Source of the DNA: Puniceicoccales bacterium
Lineage (GTDB): Bacteria > Verrucomicrobiota > Verrucomicrobiia > Opitutales > UBA9783
Assembly: GCA_031266455.1 (NCBI GenBank)
Contig: JAISBA010000005.1
Span: 91,819-155,818 of the forward strand
Length of the DNA stretch: 64,000 bases
Direction of reading: 5' to 3'
Positions 21,147 through 57,290 of this stretch are shown piece after piece. The translations under genes were made by a program, and so were the position numbers. The notes beneath the pieces were generated by a model. The model saw nothing but the letters and a program-made list of their open reading frames with translations, was not told the origin of the DNA and did not search any database. How positions within the stretch are numbered: the stretch's first letter is position 1; each line of letters begins with the position of its first letter.

Positions 21147-21938
21147 ATGTGCCCCTGCATGTTAGAAATAAAGGATCTGTGTGTTTATTACATAAACGCG
21201 ACAGGGTTTTTTAGAAAAGTTAAGCATGTTGTAAAAGCTGTTGATGGAATTTCATTGAGGGTAGAACAAGGCTGCACTTTAGGTTTGGTGGGAGAAAGCG
21301 GCAGTGGAAAGTCGACGGTAGGAAAAGCAATTGTTCGGCTAGTTACCGCGTGTTCGGGAGAAATTTTTTTCAATGGAACCTGCATTTCAAATAAAACAAA
21401 CCGTGAGTTTTTCCAATATCGTAAAAAAATTCAAATGATATTTCAAGATCCCTTCAATTCTCTAAATCCACGAATGCATGTGGAATCTATTCTAATGGAG
21501 CCTTTAGACATCCATTTTAAATCTTGGAGTCGTCAACAAAAGCATTCGAGGATTTTAGCCTTGCTGGACCAAGTTGGATTGCCTCATACAAGCTTAGATC
21601 GTTATCCACATGAATTCAGCGGTGGACAGCGTCAACGCATCGGAATTGCGAGAGCCTTAGCGGTGGAACCGGAATTGCTTATTTGCGATGAACCCGTAAG
21701 CGCATTAGATGTCTCTGTTCAAGCACAAATTGTTAATTTACTGATGGATTTGCAAAAAGCGTTTGGATTAACGTACCTTTTTATAGCGCACGATTTGGCT
21801 ATCGTGGAACACGTGAGTGATGTTGTTGCCGTTATGCAACAGGGACGTATTGTGGAACAAGCGCCTGCTCAGGATTTATACGTTTCGCCCCAACATCCCT
21901 ACACGCAGAAATTGTTGCAATCCATACCCACACTCTAG
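21147..21938 (+). CDS. ABC transporter ATP-binding protein, oligopeptide/dipeptide (OppF/DppF)-like, orphan
   Basis: Walker A GESGSGKST, signature FSGGQRQRIGIARAL, Walker B LICDEPVSALD and the Opp-type C-terminal PQHPYTQKLL. No permease or binding-protein gene is adjacent. Confidence 0.85.
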   Translation: MCPCMLEIKDLCVYYINATGFFRKVKHVVKAVDGISLRVEQGCTLGLVGESGSGKSTVGKAIVRLVTACSGEIFFNGTCISNKTNREFFQYRKKIQMIFQDPFNSLNPRMHVESILMEPLDIHFKSWSRQQKHSRILALLDQVGLPHTSLDRYPHEFSGGQRQRIGIARALAVEPELLICDEPVSALDVSVQAQIVNLLMDLQKAFGLTYLFIAHDLAIVEHVSDVVAVMQQGRIVEQAPAQDLYVSPQHPYTQKLLQSIPTL

Positions 21939-22178: not shown

Positions 22179-22922
22179 ATGAGCAAAACAATAAATACAA
22201 TTATAAAAACTGGTTTTGTAATGGTAGGTTTGATGGGTGAGGTCACCTTAAACGCCTGGTGGTGCGAGGATTGCCATGAGGAACATGAATTTGATTCGTG
22301 TGACAAGACTGGTAAGGTCAATTCTAGTCCCAGTCGTGTTGCTAATTTTCCGCTTGTAGGATATGTGGTGAATGGTGATGAAAAAATAGCGGTTCACGGT
22401 CCGATAACGCCAAGAGGAGATTATAGAACACTCTTTCACGTTCCGTGCCGAAAAATTGCAGGTCAATGGTTCTTGACGACTAATCTAGAAGATGTACTTG
22501 CAAAAAATAGCAATCTTTTCGATAATAAAGGCGAGCCCCTGCGACAGGCAGGCGCCTTGGCCAATGGTTGTCCTGTTTATGAAATGCCAGAGTCTTTAAG
22601 TTTAAAAAGATCTTGGTATAGGTATCTATTCGTTGCTTCCCGAGACAATAGAATACACGAAGGACGAGAGTCTCCAATCGGGGCACCGCCTTATTATCCA
22701 GTTGAAATGGTTCGATTAGTTCATAGCCGTTTTGGATATAATGAGTACAAGTATTGTAGTTTTCCACGGCAGGCTGGCGACCCAAAGAAAAATAGTGATG
22801 GAACTCTTTTCTTGAGAGGTGCTTGTTTCGATGGTCGCGTTTGGGTTGACATAAATACAGGTCAAATTTACAATAGTCTAGAGGAAATGCCGCAAGGATA
22901 TAAGCCCAATTGCGACTTTTAA
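22179..22922 (+). CDS. CCHC-knuckle family protein P1 (hydrophobic N-terminal anchor + CxxCxxxHxxxxC, long C-terminal module)
   Basis: The N-terminus MSKTINTIIKTGFVMVGLMGEVTLNAWWCEDCHEEHEFDSC aligns with four paralogs. Start at ATG 22179 follows the paralog alignment and an AAAGGA site upstream. No known family recognised. Confidence 0.7.
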   Translation: MSKTINTIIKTGFVMVGLMGEVTLNAWWCEDCHEEHEFDSCDKTGKVNSSPSRVANFPLVGYVVNGDEKIAVHGPITPRGDYRTLFHVPCRKIAGQWFLTTNLEDVLAKNSNLFDNKGEPLRQAGALANGCPVYEMPESLSLKRSWYRYLFVASRDNRIHEGRESPIGAPPYYPVEMVRLVHSRFGYNEYKYCSFPRQAGDPKKNSDGTLFLRGACFDGRVWVDINTGQIYNSLEEMPQGYKPNCDF

Positions 22923-23301: not shown

Positions 23302-23957
23302 ATGCAAAAAACAGTGTGTACAATTATAAAAACTGGTCTTATGGTAGTAGATTTGATAGGTGTAGTTACCTTAAATGCTGGATGGTATTGTTGCCATTGT
23401 TATGTGAAGCATGAATTTGATATATGTCCCAGTGATGGGTGTGCCAATCTTGGCCTCAGTCGTGTTGCCGATTTTCCGCATGTAGGATATGTGATACACT
23501 ACAAACACCACAACGGCAAAGAGGCAATTTATGGTCCGGTCCTACCAGATGGAACTTACAGAACACTCTCTCATACCGTAGTTCAAAAAATTGAAGATCA
23601 GTGGTTTTTGGCGACTAAGTGCGAAGGCTGACTGTCTTTTCGATCGTACGGGAAACCCCCTGCAACAGATAGGCTTCCTGGCCAATGGTTATCCCGTTTA
23701 TGAAGTACCAAAGTGCTTAAATCAATTCAGATGTTGGCATATTGCTCCTCGAGACCGAAGAAGGCACGAGATAGGAGAGAGTAAATTTGGGACACCGAAT
23801 TATTATCCAGTTGAAGAGGTTCAATTAGTTTATGGCCATTTTGTGTATAATGATTTTGAGCACTATTCCTCACGAGGGAGGTGTTTATTTCAATGGTTGT
23901 ATTTGGGTTGGTGAAAATACGGGTGAAATTTACGCTAGTCCAAAGGAAATGCCTTAA
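23302..23957 (+). pseudogene. CCHC-knuckle family member P2, disrupted by at least two frameshifts
   Basis: ORF 23302..23631 carries the N-terminal module. Homology to P1 and P3 continues in a second frame (23591..23914: NGYPVYEVP...YYPVEEVQLV) and then a third (GGVYFNGCIWVGENTGEIYASPKEMP*, stop at 23955..23957). Confidence 0.8.
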
Positions 23958-24264: not shown

Positions 24265-24909
24265 TTATTTTTTAGAATCCAAAGACCGCGCTTGCTTCTT
24301 GGAAGCCTCTTTTTCCTTCAACGCTAAAAACTGTTGGTAAGTAATTGCGTTGCGTTGCGTAAAATGCCTATATAGGTAGCAAGAAATGGCACCGCAAATG
24401 TAACCTAAAATAATAGCACCAATTACAATCGCCAGCGTTATTTTTAAGAAACAGGCACCTTTGTGCCCTATAGATCCGTGACCCAGAATCTCTCTCGCCG
24501 TAACGTTTAATCCCAATTGATTGCTGGTATCCAGAAGCTTAAGAAATTTTTCTCCAACTTTATACTCAAAGGGCCACAATATGCCTACCGTCAAAGGATT
24601 TGAAATCATTTGTAGTGCGACCAAAATCATAATGTTTGCTTTGAAAATAATCGCAAGGATGCTTGCTATGAGCGTCTGAGCGCCCATAACGGGGAGAAGG
24701 GTTAAAATCCAGCCCGAGTAGAGGGCAGGTTTTACAGCTTGGTATTTAAATGACCATAGGTAACGCCGTTTTAGTAAGCTGTCGCCAAACCATCTTAAAA
24801 TTTTATACCGAGCAAAGGTAGAACGCCTCGGCAAATAACGTAGCCACTTTTTTGCTTGTTTGCGACGATTTTGTCTGAGGGCTTGCCAGTCTTTTTCGTA
24901 TGAGTTCAT
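24265..24909 (-). CDS. membrane protein, DUF2062-like
   Basis: Multi-TM protein with GAQTLIASILAIIFKANIMILVALQMISNPLTVG, which resembles the DUF2062 core. Start trimmed to ATG 24909 because the longer ORF runs into tRNA-Cys. Confidence 0.5.
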   Translation of the reverse strand: MNSYEKDWQALRQNRRKQAKKWLRYLPRRSTFARYKILRWFGDSLLKRRYLWSFKYQAVKPALYSGWILTLLPVMGAQTLIASILAIIFKANIMILVALQMISNPLTVGILWPFEYKVGEKFLKLLDTSNQLGLNVTAREILGHGSIGHKGACFLKITLAIVIGAIILGYICGAISCYLYRHFTQRNAITYQQFLALKEKEASKKQARSLDSKK

Positions 24910-24916
24910 AACATCA

Positions 24917-24991
24917 TGGAGGCACGGGTCGGAATTGAACCGACGCATAAGAGTTTTGCAGACTCCTGCCTTACCACTTGGCTACCGTGCC
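24917..24991 (-). tRNA. tRNA-Cys (GCA)
   Basis: The reverse complement folds by hand. Acceptor GGCACGG/CCGTGCC, anticodon stem GGAGT/ACTCT with loop CTGCAAA, T arm GTCGG-TTCAATT-CCGAC, discriminator U and an encoded CCA. Confidence 0.9.
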
Positions 24992-25058: not shown

Positions 25059-25781
25059 TTATGCTTTCTTTTTGTGGGTACCGACAGTCGCATTATTTTC
25101 ATCGTCACCCTCCCAATGCATCGTCTCATCTTGTTCCAATACCTCTTCCTTTTCGTTGGTATCTTCTCCAACATCTACCTCTAAGTCTTTGTAGAGAAGA
25201 TCTTCGGCCTTATCGGCATTTTCTTGGATTTCTTCTCGATCCAATTCGAATCCTGCAGGGATATATTCTAATATATCCGATAATTCACGGTAACAGTGGA
25301 TGGCAGATCCTTCAAAAAATTCTTGTTGATATTGCTCATTTAAATCATCCGCAATTTCGTCGGGTGAAATATTTTGTTTAAAATCGATACTGTCATTGAG
25401 TAACCTCACACGTAGGCGAGTCACGTGATCAATGAGATCCGCGTAAGGACCTTTTTCTTCATCAACGGAATTGGGCAATGCAAAAAGAGGTTCATCCGAA
25501 TCGATCAAATTTCCTTCCACACGTGTCAAGCGAACCAAATTTTCTTTGAGACGCTTATCAATTCTGAACTTGAAGAATGCACGATCTAAAATGTCGGTAT
25601 TCAATCCATAGTCTTTCAATGCATCCATTAGATCAAGTATATAGATCATTTGCTTTGGATCTAAAATGCTAAGCCCATCCAAATCCCAATGAATGGGGTC
25701 GCTAATTTCTTTAACCCACCAGTTAAAATCATTCCCTAAACGTACGATACACCAGTTTAGTTTTGGAGCAATAACAGACAT
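25059..25781 (-). CDS. hypothetical protein with highly acidic C-terminal third
   Basis: ORF 25059..25931. Start placed at ATG 25781 (MSVIAPKLNW) to avoid overlap with the divergent gene. No recognisable motif. The tail is E/D-rich (EEIQENADKAEDLLYKDLEVDVGEDTNEKEEVLEQDE). Confidence 0.5.
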   Translation of the reverse strand: MSVIAPKLNWCIVRLGNDFNWWVKEISDPIHWDLDGLSILDPKQMIYILDLMDALKDYGLNTDILDRAFFKFRIDKRLKENLVRLTRVEGNLIDSDEPLFALPNSVDEEKGPYADLIDHVTRLRVRLLNDSIDFKQNISPDEIADDLNEQYQQEFFEGSAIHCYRELSDILEYIPAGFELDREEIQENADKAEDLLYKDLEVDVGEDTNEKEEVLEQDETMHWEGDDENNATVGTHKKKA

Positions 25782-25806
25782 GACAATGGTTTTGAAATAA
25801 AATTGA

Positions 25807-26919
25807 ATGGGAGTAAACCTTAAAAATAATTTTTTATGCATGCCCGCATGTTCTAAATGTAAAATTGACTTGCTCACGCCGGTAATACCGACTAAATTAC
25901 AGTCTGTGAAGCATAAGGCGGGGTTGGGCATATTAGTTATTTTGATCGTATTGGCAGGTGTGATCTATGGATGCATCCGATGGGTGCGATACGTCCCCAC
26001 AATACGTCTTGGATTGAATGCTTCTTCGGGGTTTGAATACTTTATTTTAGCAAAAAAGGCAAAGTTTTTTAAACGCGCCGGACTACGTGTTCAACTCATG
26101 GAATTTGGTTCATTCAGCGATGTACAACAAGCTTTTGAATGGGGACAAATTCACGGAATGATCTGCAATCTAATTGATGTTATGATGATTCAGCAAAAAA
26201 ATAAAGCGCTTGCACCCAAAATTATTCTTATTCCTTCTTATGCCACACCGGAAGCTGCATGCCACGTATTGGTTGATAAAAGCATAAAAAATATGAGCGA
26301 TATTCGAGGTCAATGCATCGGTGGGGAAATTAATTCCTTTGGTGGTTTTGTTTTGTTAAAAGCGTTAAAATCGGTAGCACTGTCTATGCATGACATAAAA
26401 CTACGTTTTGTAGATCCAACCGCCTTTGAAACGTTTATTCAAAAGCAAAAAATACAAGGTGTTATAGCTTATCCTCCTTACAATGTCCATTTAATGAAAA
26501 ATTCTACCCATTATCATTCCATTTATTCTACGGCGAATTGGCCTAAAGAGATGAAACTCAATGTTTTGGTAATGAATCAAAACACCCTACAAAGGCATGC
26601 GAAAGGTTTTCAGAAATTTATTGCAAATTGGGATAACTTATTGGATTTGTACAAAAGTAATCCGGGACTTGGAAATACGTACCTAAGTCATCATTTATCC
26701 GTTTCTAAAAACAGATCTGAAAAAATATTCAACGCCGTTGTTCCATTGAAATTAGGAGAACAAGTTCAATTATTTACATTTAATAAATACCTCACAGGTG
26801 TGATAGAAACGATTAATGCAGAATTTCTTGCCAATAATAACTTGTCGGCAAAAGACATAGACTTCGATGAAGTTTTTGACAAAACATTTCTGTATGAGGC
26901 ATTGCAACGCAAACAATGA
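25807..26919 (+). CDS. membrane-anchored periplasmic binding protein, NMT1/SsuA/TauA-like
   Basis: One N-terminal TM helix (GLGILVILIVLAGVIYG) is followed by IRLGLNASSGFEYFILAKKAKFFKRAGLRVQLMEFGSFSDVQQAFEWGQIHG, which is typical of sulfonate/nitrate-type SBPs. The exact start is uncertain. Its stop overlaps the start of the kinase gene. Confidence 0.65.
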   Translation: MGVNLKNNFLCMPACSKCKIDLLTPVIPTKLQSVKHKAGLGILVILIVLAGVIYGCIRWVRYVPTIRLGLNASSGFEYFILAKKAKFFKRAGLRVQLMEFGSFSDVQQAFEWGQIHGMICNLIDVMMIQQKNKALAPKIILIPSYATPEAACHVLVDKSIKNMSDIRGQCIGGEINSFGGFVLLKALKSVALSMHDIKLRFVDPTAFETFIQKQKIQGVIAYPPYNVHLMKNSTHYHSIYSTANWPKEMKLNVLVMNQNTLQRHAKGFQKFIANWDNLLDLYKSNPGLGNTYLSHHLSVSKNRSEKIFNAVVPLKLGEQVQLFTFNKYLTGVIETINAEFLANNNLSAKDIDFDEVFDKTFLYEALQRKQ

Positions 26920-40828: not shown

Positions 40829-42202
40829 TTAAAATCTAAACTCTATATGTGTACCTCCTGGGTTCGGATTTCTGCAAGTATGGAGGGGAACTATCGAAGG
40901 TGAATAAGTTGTGGTGTATTGTATACCCCCAGGTACGCTTTGACTCGTCACATTGTAGACAGGCTTTTCGTTGTTGGCTATAGTCTGGGCTTTTTCAGAT
41001 ACCAAATTTATCAACGGACTGCTGCTAGGATTACTGTCTGTTAAATTAAATATTCCGAAGATGGCATCCCTTCCCGTTAACATGGGCAGTTCAATTTGAT
41101 AATATCCTATGGGTCGAATCTCAATTCCAGGGAGTGTTTCTCTATCCACAAAAGTATACACATTTCGATCGTAATTCGTTACGCTACTTTCAAAAAACTT
41201 ATATATGGGGTTGCTGGGGTCTATATGTCTGAAAATTTCGGCAATAAAACTGTGCACTTGCGGGCGTACATTAGCGTAATTTGTCTGTGAAAAACTAAAT
41301 TGAATCGTATTTCCAAAATCGGACTCAATGTAGCAGCGATACAACTCAAGCAACCATAAAATTTCGTTTAAAGATACCTCTCGTATTTGGCAAATGTGAG
41401 TGAGCAATTCGGAAACCGGTTGGCAAAAGTTGAGTTGCCAATACTCTCCCGCTTCCCTCAGCGATGCAACGCCCAAGGTGGCCCTAATATGCCTTCTGAT
41501 GGGTCTCCCAACGCATCTATCTACGTACTCGGAGAAAGTAATCACTTTTTCATTTACCATACATCTTGATAGGCCACAGCTGAGTACCTCACACATCGTA
41601 CGCAACCATCCCAAACCCGAACAACAACATACCTCGATGGCAGCTCCGTCGCAGGTACAGCAAGAATCAAGATACCTTGCCACATGTTCTTGCGAGTGTA
41701 CCCTATACGACACTGCCTGATAATAATAGGGCATTTGAGGTACTTCACAACAACAACCATAGCCTGCAAGAAATGTATTCAGCATTTCTGTGGGTAATCC
41801 CAACCAAGGGTCATAATTCCCGTACTGCCAGTCGTATGGACTACAACAATCGTAAGGGTGCTTACGGCAACAAAGCTGATTATCCAACCAACAACCTATG
41901 ACAATCGGTGAACCTGAGCGCACATTTCCACGCGGACCCCAACCTTCGCGAGGCGCAGCTTCCGTTCTTTGGCCATCTAACCCGATGACACCGCCGCCGC
42001 CACAATTCCTGTAAGCATCTTCCAGACTACTTCTGAAATTATGAAAGGCATTGATAAAAAGTCGGGCACTTTCTTGCCAAGCGGCGCCTTGGTTAATCGA
42101 ATCGTTTGCCTGCTGAACGTCACTTATTACGTCGCACCATATACATTTACTTTGTAGGCTAAGTGCAATTGCACTTAAAGCGGTTAATGTTTTTATTTTC
42201 AT
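40829..42202 (-). CDS. exported cysteine-rich protein
   Basis: Signal-like N-terminus MKIKTLTALSAIALSLQS. About two dozen Cys are present, many in CC/CCC runs (LCCRKHPYDCCSPYD, GYGCCCEV, DSCCTCDGAAIEVCCCSG). No known family recognised. Confidence 0.6.
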   Translation of the reverse strand: MKIKTLTALSAIALSLQSKCIWCDVISDVQQANDSINQGAAWQESARLFINAFHNFRSSLEDAYRNCGGGGVIGLDGQRTEAAPREGWGPRGNVRSGSPIVIGCWLDNQLCCRKHPYDCCSPYDWQYGNYDPWLGLPTEMLNTFLAGYGCCCEVPQMPYYYQAVSYRVHSQEHVARYLDSCCTCDGAAIEVCCCSGLGWLRTMCEVLSCGLSRCMVNEKVITFSEYVDRCVGRPIRRHIRATLGVASLREAGEYWQLNFCQPVSELLTHICQIREVSLNEILWLLELYRCYIESDFGNTIQFSFSQTNYANVRPQVHSFIAEIFRHIDPSNPIYKFFESSVTNYDRNVYTFVDRETLPGIEIRPIGYYQIELPMLTGRDAIFGIFNLTDSNPSSSPLINLVSEKAQTIANNEKPVYNVTSQSVPGGIQYTTTYSPSIVPLHTCRNPNPGGTHIEFRF

Positions 42203-44098: not shown

Positions 44099-44956
44099 AT
44101 GCAAAAAACAGTGTGCATAATTATAAAAGCGGGGTTTGTAGCAGCAGGTTTGATGGGCGTAGTTACCCTCAATGCTTGGCACTGCGAGCATTGTCAAATG
44201 GAACATGAAGGTCCAGTTTGTCCCATAAGCGGGAATTCTCCGGGTGGCTCTAAATACGATAGCTGGGAAGATGAGGTAAATCCTGAGGATGAGAAAAAGG
44301 TGTTGCAAGAGCTGAAACAACGTTTCAAAGCACGTTCACAAAAGCGAAGGAAAGGTTCCGTGCCACATTTACCGAGGGATGCGTCTCCCGATACTATTCC
44401 TTCTACATTGCCGCTGGTAGGATATATGCCCAAAGGCACTCCGGTTTATGATTCGTTAAAGTTCGAAAACGCATACGTAACTGCTGCGCGCAGAAGAGTC
44501 ATAAAAGTTGCAGGTTGTTGGGTATATTGTACGTCTATTCCTGGTATATTTGTAGGAGAAGGAGTGGATGAAGTTTTGGATGGCGACGGAAATCCAATAC
44601 AACCGGTAGATAACTTGGCCGATGATCGGCCTGTTTACGAAACTCCATGGCAATCAACACAATACTTTGCTTCTTCTGATTGTCAATATTTTACCCTAGA
44701 GAATCTCCCCGATTATTCTGAAATAGCGACCTATATTCCAGTTGTCGATGTTCTATTTTTTCATGGCCGTTTTGTATATAATAATTATGAATTCCGTGCT
44801 TTCCGACGCGAGGATCATGATGGAGTTTTTTTCATCAGAGGCGCTTATTTCGATGGCAAGCAATGGATTGACAAAAATACGGGTAAAATTTACATGAGTC
44901 CAGAAGAGATGCCTCCACTCAAGTTCGATTTAACTACTACTTCCTCTTTTTTTTAA
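44099..44956 (+). CDS. CCHC-knuckle family protein P3 (long form with charged linker)
   Basis: N-terminus MQKTVCIIIKAGFVAAGLMGVVTLNAWHCEHCQMEHEGPVCP. The C-terminal block FFIRGAYFDGKQWIDKNTGKIYMSPEEMPP matches P1. It also has an inserted K/E/R-rich linker (QELKQRFKARSQKRRKGS). Confidence 0.7.
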   Translation: MQKTVCIIIKAGFVAAGLMGVVTLNAWHCEHCQMEHEGPVCPISGNSPGGSKYDSWEDEVNPEDEKKVLQELKQRFKARSQKRRKGSVPHLPRDASPDTIPSTLPLVGYMPKGTPVYDSLKFENAYVTAARRRVIKVAGCWVYCTSIPGIFVGEGVDEVLDGDGNPIQPVDNLADDRPVYETPWQSTQYFASSDCQYFTLENLPDYSEIATYIPVVDVLFFHGRFVYNNYEFRAFRREDHDGVFFIRGAYFDGKQWIDKNTGKIYMSPEEMPPLKFDLTTTSSFF

Positions 44957-45215: not shown

Positions 45216-45620
45216 ATGAACAAAATAATAAGTACATTTATAAAAGCGGGTTTTGTAACGGCAAGCTTGATGAGTGCAGTTGCTTTAAATGCTTGGTGGT
45301 GTGATCATTGTAAGAAAGTGCATCCTGAGTACAATTCAGTTTGTCCCATAACGAGACAACCACCACCCTGTTATGTAGCAAATAAGGCTGAGTACGAAAG
45401 CATCCAAAGCGGAATCGCTCAGCAGAAAGATATAACGAAACAAGACCTTACGGAAATACTAGAAGAACTTTCAAAAATTGATCCAGGGCAACTTGACCAA
45501 GGTCGACTTATGCCTGCCTCAATAACCATGACACGACGGACCCTCGCTTCAGAATTATTGACCAATTTTCAGCAAGATATTTCTATGAGCCTGAAGGATG
45601 TTATACAAAAAGTTAGATGA
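45216..45620 (+). CDS. CCHC-knuckle family protein P4 (short form, unrelated C-terminal module)
   Basis: N-terminus MNKIISTFIKAGFVTASLMSAVALNAWWCDHCKKVHPEYNSVCP. The remaining ~85 aa do not resemble P1 or P3. Confidence 0.6.
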   Translation: MNKIISTFIKAGFVTASLMSAVALNAWWCDHCKKVHPEYNSVCPITRQPPPCYVANKAEYESIQSGIAQQKDITKQDLTEILEELSKIDPGQLDQGRLMPASITMTRRTLASELLTNFQQDISMSLKDVIQKVR

Positions 45621-45760: not shown

Positions 45761-46192
45761 TTATTCGTAAGGATTAGCCTCTAAAACTCCAAAATATACG
45801 GTGGATATTTTGTGCTTTGAATCATAGGATAGAAAGCTCGTAAATGATAGACCTTAGGGCAAAATAATGGCTCCATCATGGAAAAATAGCTTATTTTTAT
45901 TATTTTCCAAAACAAGTATGCCAAAGCCGTATCGTCCCAGGAATTCCGGTTCGTTGGCCTCAATGGCATAGGCCGTTAATCGCTTAAAGTGGTTGTTTTT
46001 GGAAAGGAAATCATTCCCTTCAATATTGGTTAGGGCAAGTTCACGGATATGCTTTACCTCTGAGTTTCTATCCCAAAACCCACAGGATTCCTTGAAGGCT
46101 TGATACTGAGACTTTCGATAGGATTCCTCCAGACCCTTACTCGATCCAATTAAAACTATTCTTAAACTGATAACCGTGAAACGAGGCCAAGA
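45761..46192 (-). pseudogene. start-less ORF relic containing an orphan copy (M5, about 46028..46125) of the cassette core; possibly a serine-hydrolase/beta-lactamase-family C-terminus
   Basis: Hand translation of the minus strand gives SWPRF...SQYQAFKESCGFWDRNSEVKHIRELALTNIEGNDFLSKNNHFKRLTAYAIEANEPEFLGRYGFGILVLENNKNKLFFHDGAIILP*GLSFTSFLSYDSKHKISTVYFGVLEANPYE*. It has no start codon and one in-frame TAA. The family assignment rests only on a YGFG...HDG pattern. Confidence 0.3.
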
Positions 46193-46346
46193 CTACTCTT
46201 CTTTTTGACACATTATCCAAAAAGAATAAAAATAGTATCCCTTTTATAATCTCGTGATGGGGAAACCCTTATAAAATTTTCACTCAGTAAGAATATATCT
46301 CTTTCTTGTTTTTTCTAATAAAATATGTCCGTAAGTCCATAAGATA

Positions 46347-47567
46347 TCACGGTTTTTGAAAATCGACCTTTCGTTTTTTAATGGATGAAACAATCTTAAA
46401 AAAAATATGCTTACCGACGCGTACTACGTAAGGAGTTGCATTTTCCAGTTTTGCCGTTGGATCCAAAATCTTCTGCCCATTGACTTCAACCCCACCTTGG
46501 ACTATCAGACGCTTTAAATCTTTCTTGCTTCCCGGATACACTTGAGCTGCTACAATGAGATCCATGAGATTGTCGTGCGGTAAAGCATCTCTTGAAAATT
46601 CGGGGATCTGATGGGGTGTACCCTTTTGGGAGAAGACGGCTTCAAAATCACGTTTGACTTCACTTATCTCCACCTCGGTAAAAAACTGCCCTAGCAATTT
46701 TACGGCCAAAGCTTTTTTCGCCATCATGGGATGTTCTGTTCTCAATACGGTAATAGGTTCTTCCGGTTCTAGTGCCAGTAATCGAAAGTACGTCCACATG
46801 GCTTCGTCCGGCAAGGACATGATTTTGCCAAACATATTTTTTGCGGATTCGTTCAACGCAATGTAATTGTTGTAACTTTTGGACATCTTGCGTACCCCAT
46901 CTAATCCCACCAACAACGGCATACACATGACCGTCTGTTCACTCTGCCCATACAGACGCTGAAACTGACGCCCCAAGCACATGTTAAACAATTGGTCTGT
47001 CCCTCCCAATTCAACGTCCGCCTGCAACATAACCGAATCGTACGCTTGTAATAACGGATACAAAAATTCAACGAGGGCTATGGGAGCATTTTGGGCGTAA
47101 CGTTTTGTAAAGTCGTCACGTTCCAAAAGCTGGGCAACCGTCACCTGTCGAGACAAATTTAACAGATCTCCAAAATCCATTTTGCAAAACCATTCGCTGT
47201 TGTAACGCACTTCCGTTTTTTTCACATCCAATACTTTAAATGCTTGGTCCAGGTAAGTTTTTGCATTTTGGGTAATCTGCTCCGGAGTTAACACAGGTCT
47301 TGTGCACGAACGTCCACTGGGATCTCCGATGCGTGTTGTGTAATCTCCAATTAAGAAAATAACCCTATGTCCAAAATTTTGGAATTGTTTCAATTTATTG
47401 AAGACAACCCAATGTCCGAACGTTAAATCGGGACGTGTGGGATCCACACCTAATTTTACGCGTAAACACTGACCTCGAGTGAGCTTTTCTTTCAGTATGG
47501 TTTCACCCACACAGTGCTCCAGATTTTGAGATAACGACTCCCATTGCGATACTAAATCAACATTCAT
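46347..47567 (-). CDS. tyrS: tyrosine--tRNA ligase
   Basis: Class I motifs are present (DLTFGHWVV in the HIGH region, and KMSKS). The C-terminal domain is S4-like (LIVQGGVEVNGQKI). Confidence 0.92.
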   Translation of the reverse strand: MNVDLVSQWESLSQNLEHCVGETILKEKLTRGQCLRVKLGVDPTRPDLTFGHWVVFNKLKQFQNFGHRVIFLIGDYTTRIGDPSGRSCTRPVLTPEQITQNAKTYLDQAFKVLDVKKTEVRYNSEWFCKMDFGDLLNLSRQVTVAQLLERDDFTKRYAQNAPIALVEFLYPLLQAYDSVMLQADVELGGTDQLFNMCLGRQFQRLYGQSEQTVMCMPLLVGLDGVRKMSKSYNNYIALNESAKNMFGKIMSLPDEAMWTYFRLLALEPEEPITVLRTEHPMMAKKALAVKLLGQFFTEVEISEVKRDFEAVFSQKGTPHQIPEFSRDALPHDNLMDLIVAAQVYPGSKKDLKRLIVQGGVEVNGQKILDPTAKLENATPYVVRVGKHIFFKIVSSIKKRKVDFQKP

Positions 47568-48823
47568 TTTTTTAAATTGTAATTTTTATTGCGCATACAC
47601 CATGCAATAACCGTGCCACCCATGACAACATTTAACAATATACCCAAAGCGAATTCGTAATCGCGGGCCAGATAAATTCTTAAGCCCTGCTCATTCGTAA
47701 TCCCCGACCAATGTTTATCCAGAGAAAATGCAACCAAGCCCTGCAGGCAAGATAAGCCCAACATATTAATCGTATTGACCCAACCTATGATGAGCGCCGA
47801 GGTTTTGGGTGTTGACAATTGGGCTGCCAACGAAAAACACAGGATGTCGGCGCAAGCCACAACGCCGGCCCCAAATAATGCGGTTTGTAATAAAAAAGGG
47901 GGTATGGATGCTGAGCCGTAGATTAAACATATAAAAATACCCCCCAATAGAAGGTAACAGGTACGGATGCCTTGCAAAATTCTTTTGCCTTCACTAAATA
48001 CGGTGGGTATCAAAAAGCTGCCCACCATCAATCCTGCAAAAATGCTTTGATTGTAATGGATTGCTTGCAGAGGAGACAGATGGTATTTTGCGCTTAAAAA
48101 AGCAGGTCCCCATAGGTCCGACACCGTATTCACAACGGCGCATGTTCCAATGGTTAATAGTGCGTACAAAAAAATTTTAGGATTCAACAACACGGAACAA
48201 AAGGATGGCCAAAAACGGGTGGATTCCCTAGAGGCATCCGCAGACCGATCTTCGTTTGAAGTCGCCAAGGAAAGTAACAGTATGACCCACAGGATACCCC
48301 CTATCCACGACAGATTATCAATGGCTTGCTGCCAACTTAAGCCAGTAGCCTCCAATTGCCGCAACCAATGGCTGCTCACCAGGGTAGTCATCAGGCCAAA
48401 AACACAGGTAATACCTATAAAAATACCGCAAAGCCTATTGGGAAAAGAATCCGAAATGACCTTTACAACACCTATAAATGCAGGTGCAGCTCCTATCCCA
48501 ATGAGAATACGCCCTCCCTGAGCAACCCACTGAGTGTGCGTATGTGTAAATAAGTGTTGGCCTATCAAGCACAGGCCTAAGGAAGCGATAATAATCCATC
48601 GCACGCCCATTTTATCCAACAAAATACCCAACGGAATTTGCAGGCAACTGTACACGCCAATGCAATAAGTACTCAAAGTTGAAAATTCATTGGCAGAAAA
48701 TTGGAACGTGGCCCTAATTTCATCCGTAAAAATGCTCGGATAAATACGTAATAAATATTGGTAGGCAACAAACGCAGACAGAAGTACCCAATTCCAGTAA
48801 GCTTGTTTACGCGAATGTTGCAT
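47564..48823 (-). CDS. MFS transporter
   Basis: 419 aa with a ~12-TM profile and an MFS loop motif (LLDKMGVRW). It overlaps the tyrS start by 4 nt. Confidence 0.8.
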   Translation of the reverse strand: MQHSRKQAYWNWVLLSAFVAYQYLLRIYPSIFTDEIRATFQFSANEFSTLSTYCIGVYSCLQIPLGILLDKMGVRWIIIASLGLCLIGQHLFTHTHTQWVAQGGRILIGIGAAPAFIGVVKVISDSFPNRLCGIFIGITCVFGLMTTLVSSHWLRQLEATGLSWQQAIDNLSWIGGILWVILLLSLATSNEDRSADASRESTRFWPSFCSVLLNPKIFLYALLTIGTCAVVNTVSDLWGPAFLSAKYHLSPLQAIHYNQSIFAGLMVGSFLIPTVFSEGKRILQGIRTCYLLLGGIFICLIYGSASIPPFLLQTALFGAGVVACADILCFSLAAQLSTPKTSALIIGWVNTINMLGLSCLQGLVAFSLDKHWSGITNEQGLRIYLARDYEFALGILLNVVMGGTVIAWCMRNKNYNLKK

Positions 48824-48937
48824 GACAATTTAACATCAAAAAACTGCTGCAACTTCAATCTTAAAATAAGGAGTTTTGAAATCACGTTTACCAAAAACGT
48901 GCATATTTTTTATTTATGTTACGCGTGATAAAATATT

Positions 48938-49417
48938 TCAAAAATCGCGAACATCATATGTCTTCTCTTGGGAACCCTCTTTGAGGGATAAAGCATTCTT
49001 GATGGGAACCAGCAAAACAGGTTCCTTCGTCTTCAACCAAAGCTTGTGCTCCTTAAAAATTTTAGCCGAAACGTTTTCACAGGTCTCGCCAACGGTTGTA
49101 ACGGGCGATTTCCTGCCTTTTTTACTTAAATTGAAAGCCTTCGCCACCTTCGTTAATTTTTCTCCCACCGATTGCATAGGCTCATCCTCTGGCGTCTGTA
49201 AAATCCACCCTACGCATTCCTTTTCGGATAAGATGCCTTCATTGTCCGCTACCAAAATAACAAATTGCCTCTTCGGTGGCACTAATTTTTGTAATTCATT
49301 TTTACCTTCCTCTTGGGCTGCCGATTGCAATTCGCTAATGATTTCATCCAAAAGGCAATTATCCAAAGAAGCGTTTAGAAGTACCCGTTTTACGAGATTG
49401 AGGTCAACTTTTATCAT
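48938..49417 (-). CDS. hypothetical protein
   Basis: 159 aa with a balanced, charged composition and no recognised motif. It is preferred over the fully overlapping plus-strand ORF 48876..49457, which has an S/F/L-rich shadow composition. Confidence 0.45.
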   Translation of the reverse strand: MIKVDLNLVKRVLLNASLDNCLLDEIISELQSAAQEEGKNELQKLVPPKRQFVILVADNEGILSEKECVGWILQTPEDEPMQSVGEKLTKVAKAFNLSKKGRKSPVTTVGETCENVSAKIFKEHKLWLKTKEPVLLVPIKNALSLKEGSQEKTYDVRDF

Positions 49418-49486
49418 AAATTTAATAGAAGATAGCCGAGTTTACGCGGTTTTGTAAATGTTTTTCATATACATTTTGCTTAAATC

Positions 49487-49515
49487 TTGACATTGGGTTG
49501 AAAGCACACGATAAT
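49487..49515 (+). promoter_or_regulatory. near-consensus sigma-70-like promoter TTGACA-17-GATAAT, ending 7 nt before the ATG
   Basis: TTGACA lies at 49487..49492, followed by a 17-nt spacer and GATAAT at 49510..49515. The family-aligned start ATG is at 49523 and has no Shine-Dalgarno. Confidence 0.45.
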
Positions 49516-49522
49516 GATGCAT

Positions 49523-50143
49523 ATGAGATGTGATGTACAAAGGATAATTAAAGTAGGTGGAATTGTGGCTATCATTATGGGAGCGATTAGCTTGCATGCT
49601 TGGGACTGCCCAGATTGCAAAGAGGTACACGATGATCCATTTTGTTCTGTAACAGGCAAAGATAAAAACGGTTTGACGCCAAGCGATTATGAATTTGCAG
49701 GAAGTCTTCCAGATGGTATTGTTGTCTATGGTACACCTCATGGACATAGAAGCCCAGATGGGCAAGCTGTTCACGAGGTTGGAACGGGCTATTTTTTGTA
49801 TAAGCTTCCAACAAGTTTTGGGTCCTTCGTTTATTGTGATGGTGTAAATAATAGTGCATACAATGAAAATGGGGAAGAATATTCTATAGTAGGATCTATC
49901 GCTGACGGCAATCTAGTTTTTTTGTACACACAAGCCCCCAAGGATCTATTATTTACTATATCTTTGAACAAATGTACGACAATCTTCAAAACCCAAGATA
50001 ATCGTTTTGTGTATGGAGAACCTTGTTATCAAGTTTTATCAAACTCAAAAGATGTTTACTTCGACGGTTTTGAATATACGGATTCGGAGGGCAATACTTA
50101 CGAAAGAAATGAGCTCAAAATATGCAAAGACACTTGTGACTAA
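49523..50143 (+). CDS. CCHC-knuckle family protein P5 (divergent member)
   Basis: MRCDVQRIIKVGGIVAIIMGAISLHAWDCPDCKEVHDDPFCSVTG aligns residue for residue with P1-P4 from this ATG. The C-terminal DVYFDGFEYTDSEGNTYERNEL echoes the YFDG..W.D.NTG.IY block. Confidence 0.65.
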   Translation: MRCDVQRIIKVGGIVAIIMGAISLHAWDCPDCKEVHDDPFCSVTGKDKNGLTPSDYEFAGSLPDGIVVYGTPHGHRSPDGQAVHEVGTGYFLYKLPTSFGSFVYCDGVNNSAYNENGEEYSIVGSIADGNLVFLYTQAPKDLLFTISLNKCTTIFKTQDNRFVYGEPCYQVLSNSKDVYFDGFEYTDSEGNTYERNELKICKDTCD

Positions 50144-50220
50144 CTTCGATTTTTATGGGAATATCTTTAGCTTGCCTCAGGTAAAAGGATCCTTCGCTTC
50201 TCTCTAACGAGAATAATTAC

Positions 50221-52080
50221 CTACCTTTGTTGCATTTTTTGAGGCAAGATGCGCTCTTTAATTTCCAATTGCAATAGCTGCAGCACACTTTCCAAAGTAT
50301 GTGTCCCTGCATGTTTGGGTTGGCATCGGGAACGTATGGTAATCGAACACGCTTCTTGCTCCTTTTCTCCGATAATGAAGACGTAAGGCACTTTTTCCAT
50401 TTCCGCTTTTCTAATTTTTGCTCCCAGTGTTTCGGACTTATCGTCTACAGAGCAGCGAATGTTAAGTTTTTTCAGTCGAGCATGGACCTCATCGGCGTAA
50501 GAAACCAGATTATCATTGATAGGCAAAATACGTACCTGTTCGGGAGAAAGCCATAGAGGAAAATCACCTGCAAAATGCTCGATGAGTAGGCCGCAAAACC
50601 GTTCCATTGATCCAAAAGGTGCCCTATGGATCATGATGGGAACATGCGCTTGATTATCTTTGCCTACATAGGTAATTTTGAATCTCTGGGGTAAATTGTA
50701 ATCAATCTGAATGGTCCCCAATTGCCATTCACGCCCAATGACATCGCGTACAATAAAATCTAATTTTGGGCCATAAAAAGCCGCTTCTCCAACGACTTCG
50801 GTGGCCGGTTTAGATAATTGTTGGGCCGCTTTTCTCAAACCCTCTTCTGCTTTTTCCCACAAATGATCCTCTCCGATGTATTTATCTAAATTCGGATCGC
50901 GCAACGAGATACGTACGCGATAATCGCTCATGCCAAGTGTGTTAAAGATGATATTAATCAATTTTAAACATCCGGAAAGCTCATCGGCCAGCTGCTCTTC
51001 CGTACAAAAAATATGCGCATCGTCCTGAGTAAACCCACGAACACGCGTTAGTCCCCCTAATTCTCCCGATTGTTCCCAACGATAGACCGTTCCAAACTCG
51101 GCCATACGTATGGGCAAATCACGGTAAGAATGCGGCTGCGACGCAAATAAACGCACGTGCATAGGGCAATTCATGGGTTTTAGTAAAAAGCCTTCTATAT
51201 TTTCCGCATCGTCCAGCTGCCGCTTAAGCGTTTCGCAAGATTGTGTCTCGCCCACTAGATGATTCCAATCATCCCTATTCCAAATGGGGGCAAATTGCGA
51301 ATCTTTATAGTAGGGATAGTGACCAGAAGTTCTGAATAAATCCAATTTTCCTATGTGGGGCGTTATGACTTGGACGTATCCCTGACGATCTAATTCTTCC
51401 GTTAAAAATGCCTGCAACGTTTGCCGAAGAATCGTTCCTTTTGGAGTCCACAAAATGAGTCCTTGCCCTACCAGGTCGTCGATGTAAAACAGATTGAGCT
51501 GAATACCCAACGTTCTGTGATCGTGTTTTTTAGCTAATTCCAATTGATTAAGATAACCCTGAAGCGCTTCTTCCGATTCAAAGGCGGTCCCATAAATTCG
51601 TTGCAACTGTTTATTTTTTTCATCCCCCCGATAGTAGCAACCTGCGACGCTCAATAATTTTATGGCTTTGATGCAGTTTGTGGACTTAACGTGAGGCCCA
51701 CGGCATAGATCCAGAAAATTTCCATTACGGTACAGAGAAACGGTTTCATCTTTTGGAATGTCGGCCAGCCGTTCTATTTTGTAAGGCTGAGATAACCGTC
51801 GAAATTGTTCTTCGGCTTCTTCACGAGAGACTTCAATGCGCTCAAAAGGTTCGTTTGCCTCAATAATGCATTTCATCTCCGCTTCAATTGCTTCCAAATC
51901 ACCGATCGTTAACGTGTGCGTCAAATCAAAGTCGTAATAAAACCCGTTATCAATCGAGGGCCCAATGTCATATTTCGCCGTTGGAAACAATCGTACGATG
52001 GCAGCGGCAAGCACGTGGGCTGCCGAGTGTCGTAATTGTTGCAAATAGTCCGACTTTTCATCCGTTAACTTCATGCCCAT
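50221..52080 (-). CDS. thrS: threonine--tRNA ligase (no recognisable N-terminal TGS domain)
   Basis: RHSAAHVLAAAI (N2/editing-domain His motif) lies within 20 aa of the start. HDHRTLG, the class II core (FRWEQSGELGGLTRVRGFTQDDAHIF) and a C-terminal anticodon-binding domain follow. Start set at ATG 52080, with an alternative at 52074. Confidence 0.9.
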   Translation of the reverse strand: MGMKLTDEKSDYLQQLRHSAAHVLAAAIVRLFPTAKYDIGPSIDNGFYYDFDLTHTLTIGDLEAIEAEMKCIIEANEPFERIEVSREEAEEQFRRLSQPYKIERLADIPKDETVSLYRNGNFLDLCRGPHVKSTNCIKAIKLLSVAGCYYRGDEKNKQLQRIYGTAFESEEALQGYLNQLELAKKHDHRTLGIQLNLFYIDDLVGQGLILWTPKGTILRQTLQAFLTEELDRQGYVQVITPHIGKLDLFRTSGHYPYYKDSQFAPIWNRDDWNHLVGETQSCETLKRQLDDAENIEGFLLKPMNCPMHVRLFASQPHSYRDLPIRMAEFGTVYRWEQSGELGGLTRVRGFTQDDAHIFCTEEQLADELSGCLKLINIIFNTLGMSDYRVRISLRDPNLDKYIGEDHLWEKAEEGLRKAAQQLSKPATEVVGEAAFYGPKLDFIVRDVIGREWQLGTIQIDYNLPQRFKITYVGKDNQAHVPIMIHRAPFGSMERFCGLLIEHFAGDFPLWLSPEQVRILPINDNLVSYADEVHARLKKLNIRCSVDDKSETLGAKIRKAEMEKVPYVFIIGEKEQEACSITIRSRCQPKHAGTHTLESVLQLLQLEIKERILPQKMQQR

Positions 52081-52631
52081 TAACCTAAGGAAGAACCAAA
52101 TAATCTTCAAGGATTTTTTATGAAAACAACGACTCGCATTTGGATAAATTTTCAAGGTAACGTCGGTGGAGAGAAAGAGATATATTTGCCCTGAACTAAA
52201 CGTATACCATGAACACAATTAGAAGAGGCATTGGGGAAAAACTCCTCAGATATATTCTGTTTGAAAACGTCCGAATGTACTTTTTCTAATACTTATATCG
52301 CATCGGTATCTCACGTTTTTATAAAAAATTAACTTGACTTCATCGATGGATTATGCTGCCATGTTTATAATAATAATGTGACAATATGAGAGCTGTTAAC
52401 TTACTGAAAGTTGGATCGCAAAAGTGCCATGGGGTATTTCTTTTCATGTTGTTGTCTTTTCATTATCTGCGAACTAGCATGGCATTCGTAATTGCCGAAT
52501 CGCAGCTTATTTTTGTTCGCTAGTTTTTCTCCAAGAATACCTGCGAAAATTCGGTATACGGGTGCTTTAGTCTAGCCGCCATCAATCTCTCTAACAACTA
52601 CGTTAACTTGTATTTTTTCAAACGGATAAAA

Positions 52632-53807
52632 ATGAAAAAGTTTATTATGCCCATTATTTTCCTATTTGCGCTAATCTTACCCGCGCTGTACGGCCACTTA
52701 TTACCCGACGCCATAACATCTTTTTTTTACGCCCTCAGCCTTACCATCAAGGAGTGCATCATTTTTGTTTTACCGTTGGTTATTTTTTCTTTGCTTTACA
52801 CATCTCTCGGGCGAATTGGTGTGGGTTCATTAAGATTTTTAATCTTTATTGCTCCCTTGATATGCTTTTCAAATTTTATAAACACGCTGCTATCCTATTT
52901 GCTCAGCAGTTGCTGCATAAAAATTGGCCTATTGTCTGTTATTCCCTTCGTGCAACAGAACCATTCTAGCGTTATTCCTCTTTTCTCATTTTCATTGCCG
53001 CCCATTGTTTCCAATGACCTGGCTTTGTTGGCGGGAATTTTGGGAGGTATTGCATCCAGTTTAATGAAATCTCATAAGCTACATGCAAAGGTGTCGATGA
53101 TCGCCGAAAAATTCATGAAATATTTTTTCAGGCTTTTAATTCCACTGATGCCCTTGTTTATATTTGGAACAGCGTTGAAACTTAACCATGACGAAATGAT
53201 AGGGCTCATTTTATCCAAATACCTTGTAGTCATGGAGATTTTTGTGTTTTCCGCTTACGGCTACGTGCTGTTGCAATTATTGGTCTTATCCGGATTTCGT
53301 TTTGGCCACTGGATCGATTATCTGAAAAATTTGCTGCCGGCCGTTGTCACTGGATTTGGTTCCATGTCGAGCGCAGCTGCTCTTCCACTCTCCATTAAGG
53401 CAGCGGCAGCAAATTTGCAAAATAAGGATAATGCGGCAATTATTGTTCCACTTTCGGTTAACGTACATCTGGTAGGCGACTGTTTCTTCATTCCCTTTGT
53501 AGCCGTAGCAATTCTAACTTCTTTTAGTCAAGAGCTTCCAAATATTTCAACGTATCTCGTATTTGCCGTTTACTTCGTTATGGCTAAATTTGCAGTTGCA
53601 GCCGTACCCGGAGGAGGTATTTTGGTCATGCTACCGATTCTGCAAAACCACCTCGGGTTTAACGCGGATATGCTTGGCTTAATTACGGCTCTGTATGTTT
53701 TATTTGATTCTTTTATCACCGCCTGTAATGTCATGGGCAACGGTTCCCTGGCAATTATTTTTGATAAAATTACAAAAATAGGGAAATTTGTACAAAAAAG
53801 GAATTAA
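52632..53807 (+). CDS. dicarboxylate/amino acid:cation symporter (DAACS) family transporter
   Basis: Polytopic protein with GFGSMSSAAALPLSIK and VPGGGILVMLPIL, which resemble DAACS re-entrant loop motifs. Start at ATG 52632; the ORF track starts at a TTG at 52608. Confidence 0.8.
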   Translation: MKKFIMPIIFLFALILPALYGHLLPDAITSFFYALSLTIKECIIFVLPLVIFSLLYTSLGRIGVGSLRFLIFIAPLICFSNFINTLLSYLLSSCCIKIGLLSVIPFVQQNHSSVIPLFSFSLPPIVSNDLALLAGILGGIASSLMKSHKLHAKVSMIAEKFMKYFFRLLIPLMPLFIFGTALKLNHDEMIGLILSKYLVVMEIFVFSAYGYVLLQLLVLSGFRFGHWIDYLKNLLPAVVTGFGSMSSAAALPLSIKAAAANLQNKDNAAIIVPLSVNVHLVGDCFFIPFVAVAILTSFSQELPNISTYLVFAVYFVMAKFAVAAVPGGGILVMLPILQNHLGFNADMLGLITALYVLFDSFITACNVMGNGSLAIIFDKITKIGKFVQKRN

Positions 53808-53983
53808 GGCCCTTGGTTTAAACATTAAAATGAAGTACAAGAGGCAAATATATTAAATGGCTAAAAGGCTTCTGAGGATATTTTGCAATTTATTCTTTTG
53901 GGGCAATAACAGGTTAGTTTACCTTTAATTTGCGGGCTTTGAGAGACATAGCGATCTTACCGGCACAAAAATCTACAAAGCCA

Positions 53984-54343
53984 TTAAAAGTGAATAGCTT
54001 GTTGTGCATTAGCCGCATCGGATTCCGGTGTCAAAAACCGTATAACGTATTCTTTCTCCTTTACAAAACCTAAATGCTCCCGAATTAATTTTTCCCTGAA
54101 ACTGGGTTGGGTTTCTACCTTGCGTACAAAATGCTGTTTTTGAGATAAATGCACACGAGATGCCTCCAGGTGTTGTACTAAAAGTGAGTTTTTATCGCGC
54201 AAAGCGCGGTATAAATGATAGGATTTAAAAAATTGCTTTCCCCAGATATTTAAAAAGATTAACGCAATCACCAGTACCCAAACAAGCCATTTGTGACGAC
54301 ATAGGTATCGGCATAGGGTGATAGGGATTGTATAAATTTTCAC
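53984..54343 (-). CDS. septum formation initiator (FtsB/DivIC-like)
   Basis: 119 aa. One N-terminal TM helix (WLVWVLVIALIFLNIW) is followed by a coiled-coil segment and REKLIREHLGFVKEKEYVIRF, the typical FtsB C-terminal block. Confidence 0.65.
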   Translation of the reverse strand: MKIYTIPITLCRYLCRHKWLVWVLVIALIFLNIWGKQFFKSYHLYRALRDKNSLLVQHLEASRVHLSQKQHFVRKVETQPSFREKLIREHLGFVKEKEYVIRFLTPESDAANAQQAIHF

Positions 54344-54411
54344 TAAAGACCTATATTTTCATTGCCAAAACGAAAAGTCAAAATTAAAGTAGAGAAAGGA
54401 AGAATTTCGTT

Positions 54412-55230: not shown

Positions 55231-55234
55231 TTCC

Positions 55235-57269: not shown

Positions 57270-57290
57270 CGTTCGATGTATTGCAGCCCA

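Follow-up and report, generated by a model that had tools for sequence, protein, structure and literature searches.

Introduction

Zinc knuckles of the zf-CCHC family (PF00098) arrange four ligands in the order Cys-Cys-His-Cys over ~14 residues, with the spacing C-x2-C-x4-H-x4-C, a G-x-x-G-H pattern and aromatic residues by the first Cys; they may occur in tandem, and belong to cytoplasmic nucleic-acid-binding proteins. Another short Cys motif, W-C-x-x-C-[KHQ], marks the active sites of thioredoxin, PDI and Dsb proteins (e.g., WCGHCK or WCGPCK), among which Dsb proteins, like TlpA, are extracytoplasmic. At the level of whole gene families, the Vsp/Vlp lipoproteins of Mycoplasma and the paralogous families of Borrelia combine well-conserved leaders with fast-evolving bodies. 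Here, we describe a bacterial gene family that recalls each of these systems in part. Five of its loci (P1 to P5) lie in a 64,000-nucleotide stretch (hereafter “the window”, to which all coordinates refer) of contig JAISBA010000005.1 from a Puniceicoccales bacterium (GCA_031266455.1), and encode a hydrophobic leader, a short Cys/His-containing “knuckle” and a variable C-terminal part.

Overall, the evidence gives good support to an undescribed, lineage-specific, multi-copy family restricted to a single clade, at genus level, of uncultured Puniceicoccales (Verrucomicrobiota, Opitutia). As judged from sequence features, we favor on balance, and with modest confidence, the reading that these are exported and rapidly diversifying envelope or secreted proteins with a probable metal-binding knuckle.

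A lineage-specific family with five loci in the window

A six-frame regular-expression scan of the window for C-x2-C-x3-H-x4-6-C identified exactly five matches in real long open reading frames (ORFs), all on the forward strand (22263-22301, 23389-23427, 44183-44221, 45300-45344 and 49607-49645), the single background match lying in a stop-ridden frame. When searched against every stop-to-stop frame of the window, a hidden Markov model (HMM) of the family recovered the same five loci and no others (E-values 5e-96 to 6e-30), so that the likeness of the copies reflects homology rather than chance. A sequence-only reading of the window had proposed such a paralogue family, and the HMM confirms it as real; the five N-termini quoted there are identical to the window translations, and the bounds given for P1 are correct.

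Three of the five copies are intact. P1 (22179-22922, +, 247 aa, E-value 5e-96) consists of the leader (22179-22256, +, M1-A26), the CCHC knuckle (22257-22301, +, W27-C41), a linker and a beta-rich C-terminal domain. Its ATG at 22179, which is preceded by an AAGGA Shine-Dalgarno sequence and collinear with the starts of all homologues, is preferred over a TTG at 22116 that is without support. P3 (44099-44956, +, 285 aa, E-value 2e-95) carries an additional acidic/basic insert (~residues 52-100) between knuckle and beta domain, and inserts of this type, acidic and then basic, also occur in the variable linker of the homologues P0003, P0009 and P0016. P5 (49523-50143, +, 206 aa, E-value 7e-72) is the most divergent member, with a divergent form of the C-terminal module (ADG..VF, RFVY, YFDG.EY.D). 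The C-terminal module previously ascribed to P1, P2 and P3 is indeed common to these, and P5 brings the number of copies to four.

The other two copies are degraded. P2 (23302-23957, +) is a pseudogene with two frameshifts: its leader, knuckle and first half lie in frame 0 (23302-23628, stop at 23629-23631), its middle in frame +1 (~23624-23911) and its end in frame +2 (~23877-23954), matching three separate HMM segments (profile positions 1-101, 107-184 and 190-215), and, compared with P1, part of the gene is deleted. P4 (45216-45620, +) is a member truncated to 134 aa: leader, knuckle (x6 spacing) and helical linker module are retained, and the beta domain is deleted. It is 70% identical to the N-terminus of P0024 and, over the first 149 of 339 aa, 38% identical to P0016 (whose ORF in locus L003 of a related metagenome-assembled genome, or MAG, has 360 aa), in an alignment that takes in the helical segment IDPG.LDQ.RLM..TMTR..LAS.LLT, and the DNA 3' of P4 is syntenic with L003, minus the beta-domain part. 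As these alignments indicate, P4 is the truncated counterpart of the P0016/L003 member and a second degraded copy, such that the decayed copy noted earlier, which is P2 (spread over three frames), is not the only one. Adjoining P4, a gene remnant (45761-46015, -) retains the last 85 codons of a gene, 78% identical and with an internal stop; the intact form is a 320-aa ORF on the related MAG contig (L003, 11146-12108, -).

To what extent is this family found elsewhere? An exhaustive HMMER search of 1.84 billion representative proteins returned 41 matches at E-value ≤ 1e-3, the four weakest being unrelated giant repeat proteins aligned only at profile positions 95-177, and every match bearing a source name was a hypothetical protein of a “Puniceicoccales bacterium” MAG. 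A word-indexed search identified only three homologues outside the window, and nothing was found in a single-protein scan of genome contigs or in two metagenome contig scans. The named members are distributed over MAGs LBE99 (at least 10), LBD69 (at least 3), LBF43 (at least 1), Cd354_bin116 (at least 3) and LBJ78 (8), the latter reaching at least 13 members with the five in the window (which is probably part of this MAG), several of them in tandem pairs. Scans of the window members and 25 homologues against Pfam, NCBIfam, PADLOC and PHROGs yielded no significant or recurrent family, and PDB sequence searches gave no meaningful match (best E-values 0.29 for the family profile, 0.77 for the knuckle profile and 0.012 for the P4 C-terminus). 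Both the lineage-specificity of the family and its lack of a described counterpart, as put forward in the sequence-only reading, are thus upheld.

A predicted export leader

We assessed the leaders for signal-peptide features with a rule-based check of their sequences. All 28 (18-30 residues long) have an n-region charge of +1 to +3, an uncharged core mostly of 16 residues (range 9-16), and a Leu at -3 with an Ala at -1 directly before the conserved Trp. A positively charged n-region, an uncharged core shorter than a membrane span and Ala at -1 are features of Sec (type I) signal peptides and are present in 28 of 28, with Leu at -3 tolerated rather than typical. The N-terminus, of which ~20 hydrophobic residues had been read as an anchor or uncleaved signal, is hydrophobic as described, but looks more like a cleavable Sec signal peptide, which better fits the core length and the L-x-A. 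Signal peptidase I would cut this leader after the invariant L-x-A, and the mature protein would then begin W-[WHY]-C-x2-C-x3-H-x3-8-C-P-x-[TS]-G. An independent argument for the beta domain acting outside the cytoplasm comes from a subfamily (P0029 and the L005 gene 9776-10567) in which an unrelated, classical signal peptide (MNKLLATIALTALPIYASA) and (S)YHAP repeats precede the same domain.

Two other leader classes were considered and rejected. Bacterial lipoproteins (signal peptidase II) are disfavored because there is no lipobox (L-[AS]-[GA]-C with Cys at +1), L-N-A-W-[WHY]-C placing two residues between Ala and Cys, and type IV prepilins (Gly at -1, Glu at +5 after a short basic leader) because the -1 equivalent is Gly or Ser and the +5 position is Gly, Ala or Ser, never Glu.

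An alternative is that the N-terminal helix is not cleaved and serves as a signal anchor. The protein would then be tethered to the inner membrane, its knuckle facing the periplasm, and the W-C-x-x-C would act as a thioredoxin/Dsb-like redox dithiol. In line with this, AlphaFold2 predicts residues 3-19 as one single helix, the W-C-x-x-C active-site motif of PF00085 and TIGR01126 is present in most knuckle instances, where W-C-x-x-C-[KHQ] resembles WCGHCK and WCGPCK, and the active-site stretch is matched below threshold by TIGR01126 (E-value 2e-4, P4) and PF00085 (E-value 4.5e-4, P0024). Indeed, thioredoxin/PDI profiles give the only weak signal seen repeatedly (E-values 2e-4 to 2e-2), with W-C-x-x-C-K and the leader as the aligned part. 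These matches, however, are confined to ~25-40 residues, their scores of 15-21 bits fall below the cut-offs (23.5-107 bits), and the part of the profile upstream of the CxxC aligns to the leader itself. Nor does a complete thioredoxin fold of ~100 aa appear in the family: 23-41 residues are covered, and in the model the motif would be followed by a hairpin and then a linker. The 16-residue uncharged core is also short for a membrane span, and a redox dithiol leaves the invariant His and the third Cys unexplained. We therefore consider this alternative unlikely, and a cleavable export signal the better description of the leader.

A portable Cys-Cys-His-Cys knuckle

Directly behind the leader, the knuckle follows the consensus L-N-A-W-W-C-x2-C-x3-H-x-G-x2-C-P-x-T-G. 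Across 27 instances in homologues, the first two Cys and the His are invariant (27/27) and the Cys at the fourth position is kept in 25, with the second Cys-His spacer being x3 in all 27 and the last spacer varying from 3 to 8 residues; the residue before the first Cys is Trp in most cases, and H, Y, F, D or R in a few. The four positions are also kept in the syntenic P5 orthologues, such that the C/C/H/C pattern first seen in the window holds beyond it. P0024 contains a pair of knuckles and P0035 a set of three, each complete in its C-C-H-C residues and with helical linkers in between, and P0015, P0018 and P0027 have leader and beta domain without a knuckle. Being absent in some members and repeated in others, the knuckle behaves as an autonomous, portable module. 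In the AlphaFold2 model it is predicted as a small hairpin (strands 27-29 and 34-36, pLDDT, the predicted local distance difference test score, 72-89).

With three Cys and one His, i.e., an odd number of Cys, this module suits a tetrahedral metal site, and these 15-20 residues would form a self-contained unit in which Cys3His most likely binds a single metal ion, either Zn2+ or a different thiophilic metal. The knuckle does not belong to zf-CCHC: no profile match was found at E-value ≤ 1 for the window members or the 25 family members, and the zf-CCHC spacing is replaced by x3 in 27 of 27 instances. In HERV-W Gag, a modified second zinc finger has nonetheless been reported with just this shortened spacing, C-x2-C-x3-H-x4-C (PMC5016936), which makes the knuckle spacing compatible with zinc binding.

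Alternatively, the Cys/His cluster could be a disulfide-stabilized knot, or a handle for intermolecular disulfides, instead of a metal site. The predicted extracytoplasmic location would suit disulfides, as would the even number of Cys in 14 of 20 mature members, although this proportion is not significant and the Cys outside the knuckle are not conserved. The knuckle itself comprises three Cys and an invariant His, and in the tandem arrays of P0024 and P0035 all four C-C-H-C residues recur in every knuckle. These observations make a purely disulfide-based role improbable in our view, and metal binding the more plausible function of the knuckle.

Interchangeable C-terminal modules

In most members, the knuckle is followed by a beta-rich domain of ~170 aa, predicted to be all-beta, with recurring motifs (P.VG..P.G.PVYG, G.WLY, D..G.PLQ.VG.LADG..VY, G.FVY, FDG..W.D..TG..Y) that include the hairpin motifs G-x-x-[VL]-Y and D-x-x-G-x-P-L. 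Other C-termini are found on the same leader-knuckle cassette, e.g., NRFVRKTQ..GFRMVVD modules with Gly/Cys/Tyr-rich tails, and these homologue architectures, together with the state of P2 and P4, bear out the modular C-termini and copy decay suggested earlier. The knuckle is thus followed by interchangeable modules, mostly the beta domain.

To characterize the beta domain we modeled P1 with AlphaFold2 from an alignment of 25 sequences, which gave an overall pLDDT of 80.6 and a predicted template modeling (TM) score of 0.74, with residues 31-140 at pLDDT 84-96. Foldseek searches with this model gave a best E-value of 0.77 against PDB (TM-score ≤ 0.18) and of 0.31 against BFVD, and across both searched models (two against PDB, the better one against BFVD) nothing was found at E-value < 0.3. 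A structural neighbor was therefore not found in PDB or BFVD, and compared with these two databases a new fold is a possibility for this predicted domain rather than a result.

In its all-beta composition and recurring motifs, the domain resembles beta-hairpin or blade-repeat proteins (NHL/six-bladed propellers, MORN, Rhs/YD, CROP/choline-binding), the classes into which its non-significant top Foldseek matches fall. The weakest matches of the exhaustive search are likewise repeat stretches of giant proteins with NHL, propeller or MBG domains. Unlike such proteins, no Pfam repeat family is matched by any of the 25 members, and membership in NHL or beta-propeller families was rejected, the link consisting of weak one-way matches to giant repeat proteins, with no profile match and TM-scores ≤ 0.18. 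We also rejected a lead for the helical C-terminus of P4 as a type III secretion needle protein, there being no needle among PDB matches at E-value ≤ 10 and no Pfam match (T3SS_needle_F included).

One cassette joined to at least four kinds of C-termini (beta, helical, “NRFVRKTQ..GFRMVVD” and extra knuckles) is reminiscent of polymorphic toxins, and the proteins could be effectors or toxins aimed at a eukaryotic host or competing bacteria, with the N-terminal cassette as trafficking domain and the variable C-termini as payloads. Rapid turnover, pseudogenes and the presence of other gene remnants in the window would be compatible with this. On the other hand, the same beta domain is found in most members, none of the C-terminal modules corresponds to a known toxin, defense or effector family, and the window shows neither a conserved adjacent immunity-like gene nor secretion-system genes. 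We regard an effector or toxin role as quite unlikely, and an envelope or secreted binding role as the more likely reading.

Fast divergence and turnover of the copies

The best matches to the tyrosyl-tRNA synthetase (TyrRS) encoded in the window come from two “MAG: Puniceicoccales bacterium” genomes (91% and 89% identity; next best 70%), and two related contigs, L006 and L008, show collinearity with window positions 46042-57280 at ~85% nucleotide identity. P5 has syntenic orthologues on both (206 aa on L006 and 197 aa on L008), and its ORF is intact in all three genomes. Evolutionarily, these orthologues display (Nei-Gojobori estimates) a dN of 0.24-0.30 for a dS of 0.63-0.69 (dN/dS 0.36-0.45), compared to a dN of 0.009-0.069 and dS of 0.40-0.75 for five flanking genes (dN/dS 0.02-0.15), i.e., a dN ~5 times that of the neighboring genes. 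Leader and knuckle are the better-conserved parts: invariant positions number 14 of 26 in the leader, 12 of 20 in the knuckle and 62 of 150 in the remainder, and C, C, H and C are all kept. Intact ORFs in three genomes and a dN/dS of 0.36-0.45 indicate a functional gene, albeit one that evolves fast at replacement sites. Only the syntenic P5 orthologues enter into this comparison of rates, since P0002, which is 56% identical to P1, is suggested to be a paralogue in the same MAG rather than the P1 orthologue.

These data bear on whether the ORFs might be non-functional decaying repeats, or miscalled ORFs of a degrading genome, as the degraded state of P2 and P4 (two of five) and the reduction of a neighboring gene to a remnant could suggest. 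Against this stand the P5 ORF, which is undisrupted in three genomes and has a dN/dS well under 1, the conserved Shine-Dalgarno and promoter-like sites, the invariant residues kept across at least five genomes and a confident fold prediction based on covariation among 25 sequences. Alone among the alternatives, this one is essentially excluded.

Gene content at family loci varies between otherwise collinear genomes. Next to TyrRS, the window carries P4 and P3, L006 a 226-aa member and a 98-aa ORF, and L008 a single 216-aa member followed by unrelated genes, and synteny with Cd354_bin116 contigs is also broken at family loci. A conserved small ORF of ~98-115 aa (..LEICLTQFETD.TLELWAYDKSEENPV.YD..DRLLQILGCERKSRNFG..) adjoins family members in two related genomes (L004, 9529-9876, and L006, 12412-12708, -), without a counterpart in the window by tblastn.

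Leaders and bodies of the same proteins also tell different histories. P0004 and P0003 are alike at 25 of 26 leader residues for 27% identity in the body, P3 and P0003 at 18 of 26 for 46%, and P2 is nearest P3 in its proximal 5' region (71-90% nucleotide identity) and nearest P1 in its body. In most pairs, dS over the 45 head codons is below that of the tail (e.g., 0.17 vs. 3.1). The discordance between leader and body and the lower head dS are suggestive of exchange or conversion of a 5' cassette between copies. Fast turnover of the family is thus apparent from high dN, varying copies at syntenic loci, the frameshifted P2, the truncated P4 and this discordance.

Upstream regions and genomic context

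P2, P3 and P4 have ~130 nucleotides 5' of the ATG in common, including positionally conserved sigma-70-like hexamers and an AGGAG-type ribosome-binding site, and P1, P0004 and P0003 have a second, shorter type of 5' region in common. The candidate promoters are TTGATA-17-TATTCT for P2 (23231-23259, +), TTGATA-17-TACCAT for P3 (44028-44056, +) and CTGACA-17-TATCAT for P4 (45145-45173, +), the latter two with a TG before the second hexamer; the number of such sites is not above chance in these regions, and their sole support is the same position in three paralogues. Each of the five genes is a monocistronic unit that has a promoter-like site and a Shine-Dalgarno sequence of its own. A conserved 28-nucleotide element (CCATTCGATGTGGCTTGAGGACGGATTC) lies upstream of P1 (22071-22098, +), with copies upstream of P2 (23120-23146, +, one base shorter) and P4 (45022-45049, +) and none upstream of P3 (2 matches vs. 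0 expected in shuffles). An Rfam scan at the conserved upstream elements identified no RNA family. Neither simple-sequence or tandem repeats, nor homopolymer switches, nor invertible promoter repeats were detected at the loci, which bear only short, weak inverted repeats; a phase-variable surface gene family was consequently rejected, as no switch repeats or invertible promoter elements occur at the genes.

The window (G+C content 40.4%) otherwise contains chromosomal genes of an ordinary kind, coding for transketolase, a Clp-type AAA ATPase, a tail-specific protease, a hybrid histidine kinase, PBP2, an O-antigen-ligase-like protein, and the Tyr-, Thr- and Leu-tRNA synthetases. P1 is adjoined by an OppF/DppF-type ABC ATPase gene (21147-21938, +) that has no adjacent permease gene, with a beta-ketoacyl synthase gene upstream of it on the opposite strand. 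On L008, a BPD_transp permease and an ABC ATPase follow a family member, this ATPase being 37% identical to that of the window and not its orthologue. The suggestion that P1 encodes the precursor of a ribosomally synthesized and post-translationally modified peptide, prompted by a radical SAM gene and the ABC ATPase upstream, was rejected, the proteins being 200-285 aa long and other loci lacking such neighbors.

Several further observations concern the surrounding genes. About 1 kb from the P1/P2 pair, a tRNA-Cys(GCA) gene (24917-24991, -) overlaps the 5' end of a DUF2062 ORF (24265-24948, -), whose true start must therefore lie further downstream; a tRNA-His(GTG) gene is located at 33475-33551. 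An MFS transporter gene (47564-48823, -) is intact in the window (419 aa) and L006 (421 aa), and called as two ORFs (166 and 189 aa) in L008 (8736-10004) and L009, where it is probably a pseudogene. Sizeable ORFs without a Pfam match are found at 40829-42202 (-), 25059-25931 (-), 29497-30714 (+), 30731-32545 (+) and 48938-49417 (-). The last of these (159 aa) is 88-92% identical at the amino acid level among three related genomes, with a dN/dS of 0.06-0.09. The unannotated 604-aa ORF contains a tandem duplication of 36 bp at 31006-31076 (2 copies, 85% matches).

Discussion

Taken together, leader, knuckle and evolutionary behavior point to proteins that would be exported through Sec, may hold a metal ion through the knuckle, and might serve as surface or binding proteins, either within the envelope or extracellularly, the latter role being suggested by their evolution under diversifying or relaxed selection. 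Several points weigh against this interpretation. Cleavage is predicted from simple rules, with a tolerated residue at -3, and some leaders have an acidic residue in their core (E21 in P1, D17 in P2). Thiol-based Zn sites are unusual outside the cytoplasm, and the even Cys totals of many mature members weakly allow for disulfides. The family has no known partner genes, its neighbors being unrelated housekeeping genes. Finally, dN/dS is below 1, so diversifying selection is not demonstrated and relaxed constraint would look alike, and the discordance of leaders and bodies rests on short segments.

If our interpretation is correct, this family adds two undescribed modules, an export-coupled CCHC knuckle and a beta domain without structural neighbor, and it would be unusual for a thiol-based metal knuckle to work outside the cytoplasm. 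A verrucomicrobial clade that has hardly been studied would also devote at least 10-13 genes per genome to a fast-turnover envelope or secreted family, a kind of gene set that usually marks interactions with a host, phages or competitors. It is tempting to speculate further that the portable Cys3His metal-binding mini-domain, as the mature N-terminus of a recombining family of proteins outside the cytoplasm, and a new beta fold together form a new diversity-generating surface system of this clade, but we hold this stronger claim as doubtful. Practical value would be modest before a function or localization is shown, since clade-specific orphan families are common in MAGs.

How does the family compare with the systems outlined above? 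With zf-CCHC knuckles it has in common the ligand order, the length, the aromatic residues by the first Cys and the possibility of tandem occurrence. It differs in its x3 spacer, the missing G-x-x-G-H pattern, and a last spacer of 3-8 residues that is followed by a conserved P-x-[TS]-G, and, unlike in cytoplasmic nucleic-acid-binding proteins, its knuckle sits right after the export leader of a bacterial protein. The local W-C-x-x-C-[KHQ] motif and a probable extracytoplasmic location are reminiscent of Dsb and TlpA proteins, from which the family is set apart by its lack of a thioredoxin fold and by the extra invariant His and Cys.

As a gene family, the closest parallels are Mycoplasma Vsp/Vlp lipoproteins and Borrelia paralogous families. 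The Puniceicoccales family differs from both in having no lipobox, switch repeats, invertible promoter repeats or sequence relationship to them. The likeness extends to many dispersed and tandem copies per genome, to a promoter, 5' untranslated region and leader that are better conserved than the body, to pseudogenes and truncated copies, and to fast-evolving bodies with signs of recombination between copies. What is new is thus the protein family itself and the sequence context of a CCHC-type knuckle, whereas a clade-specific set of fast-evolving exported paralogues is familiar in kind.

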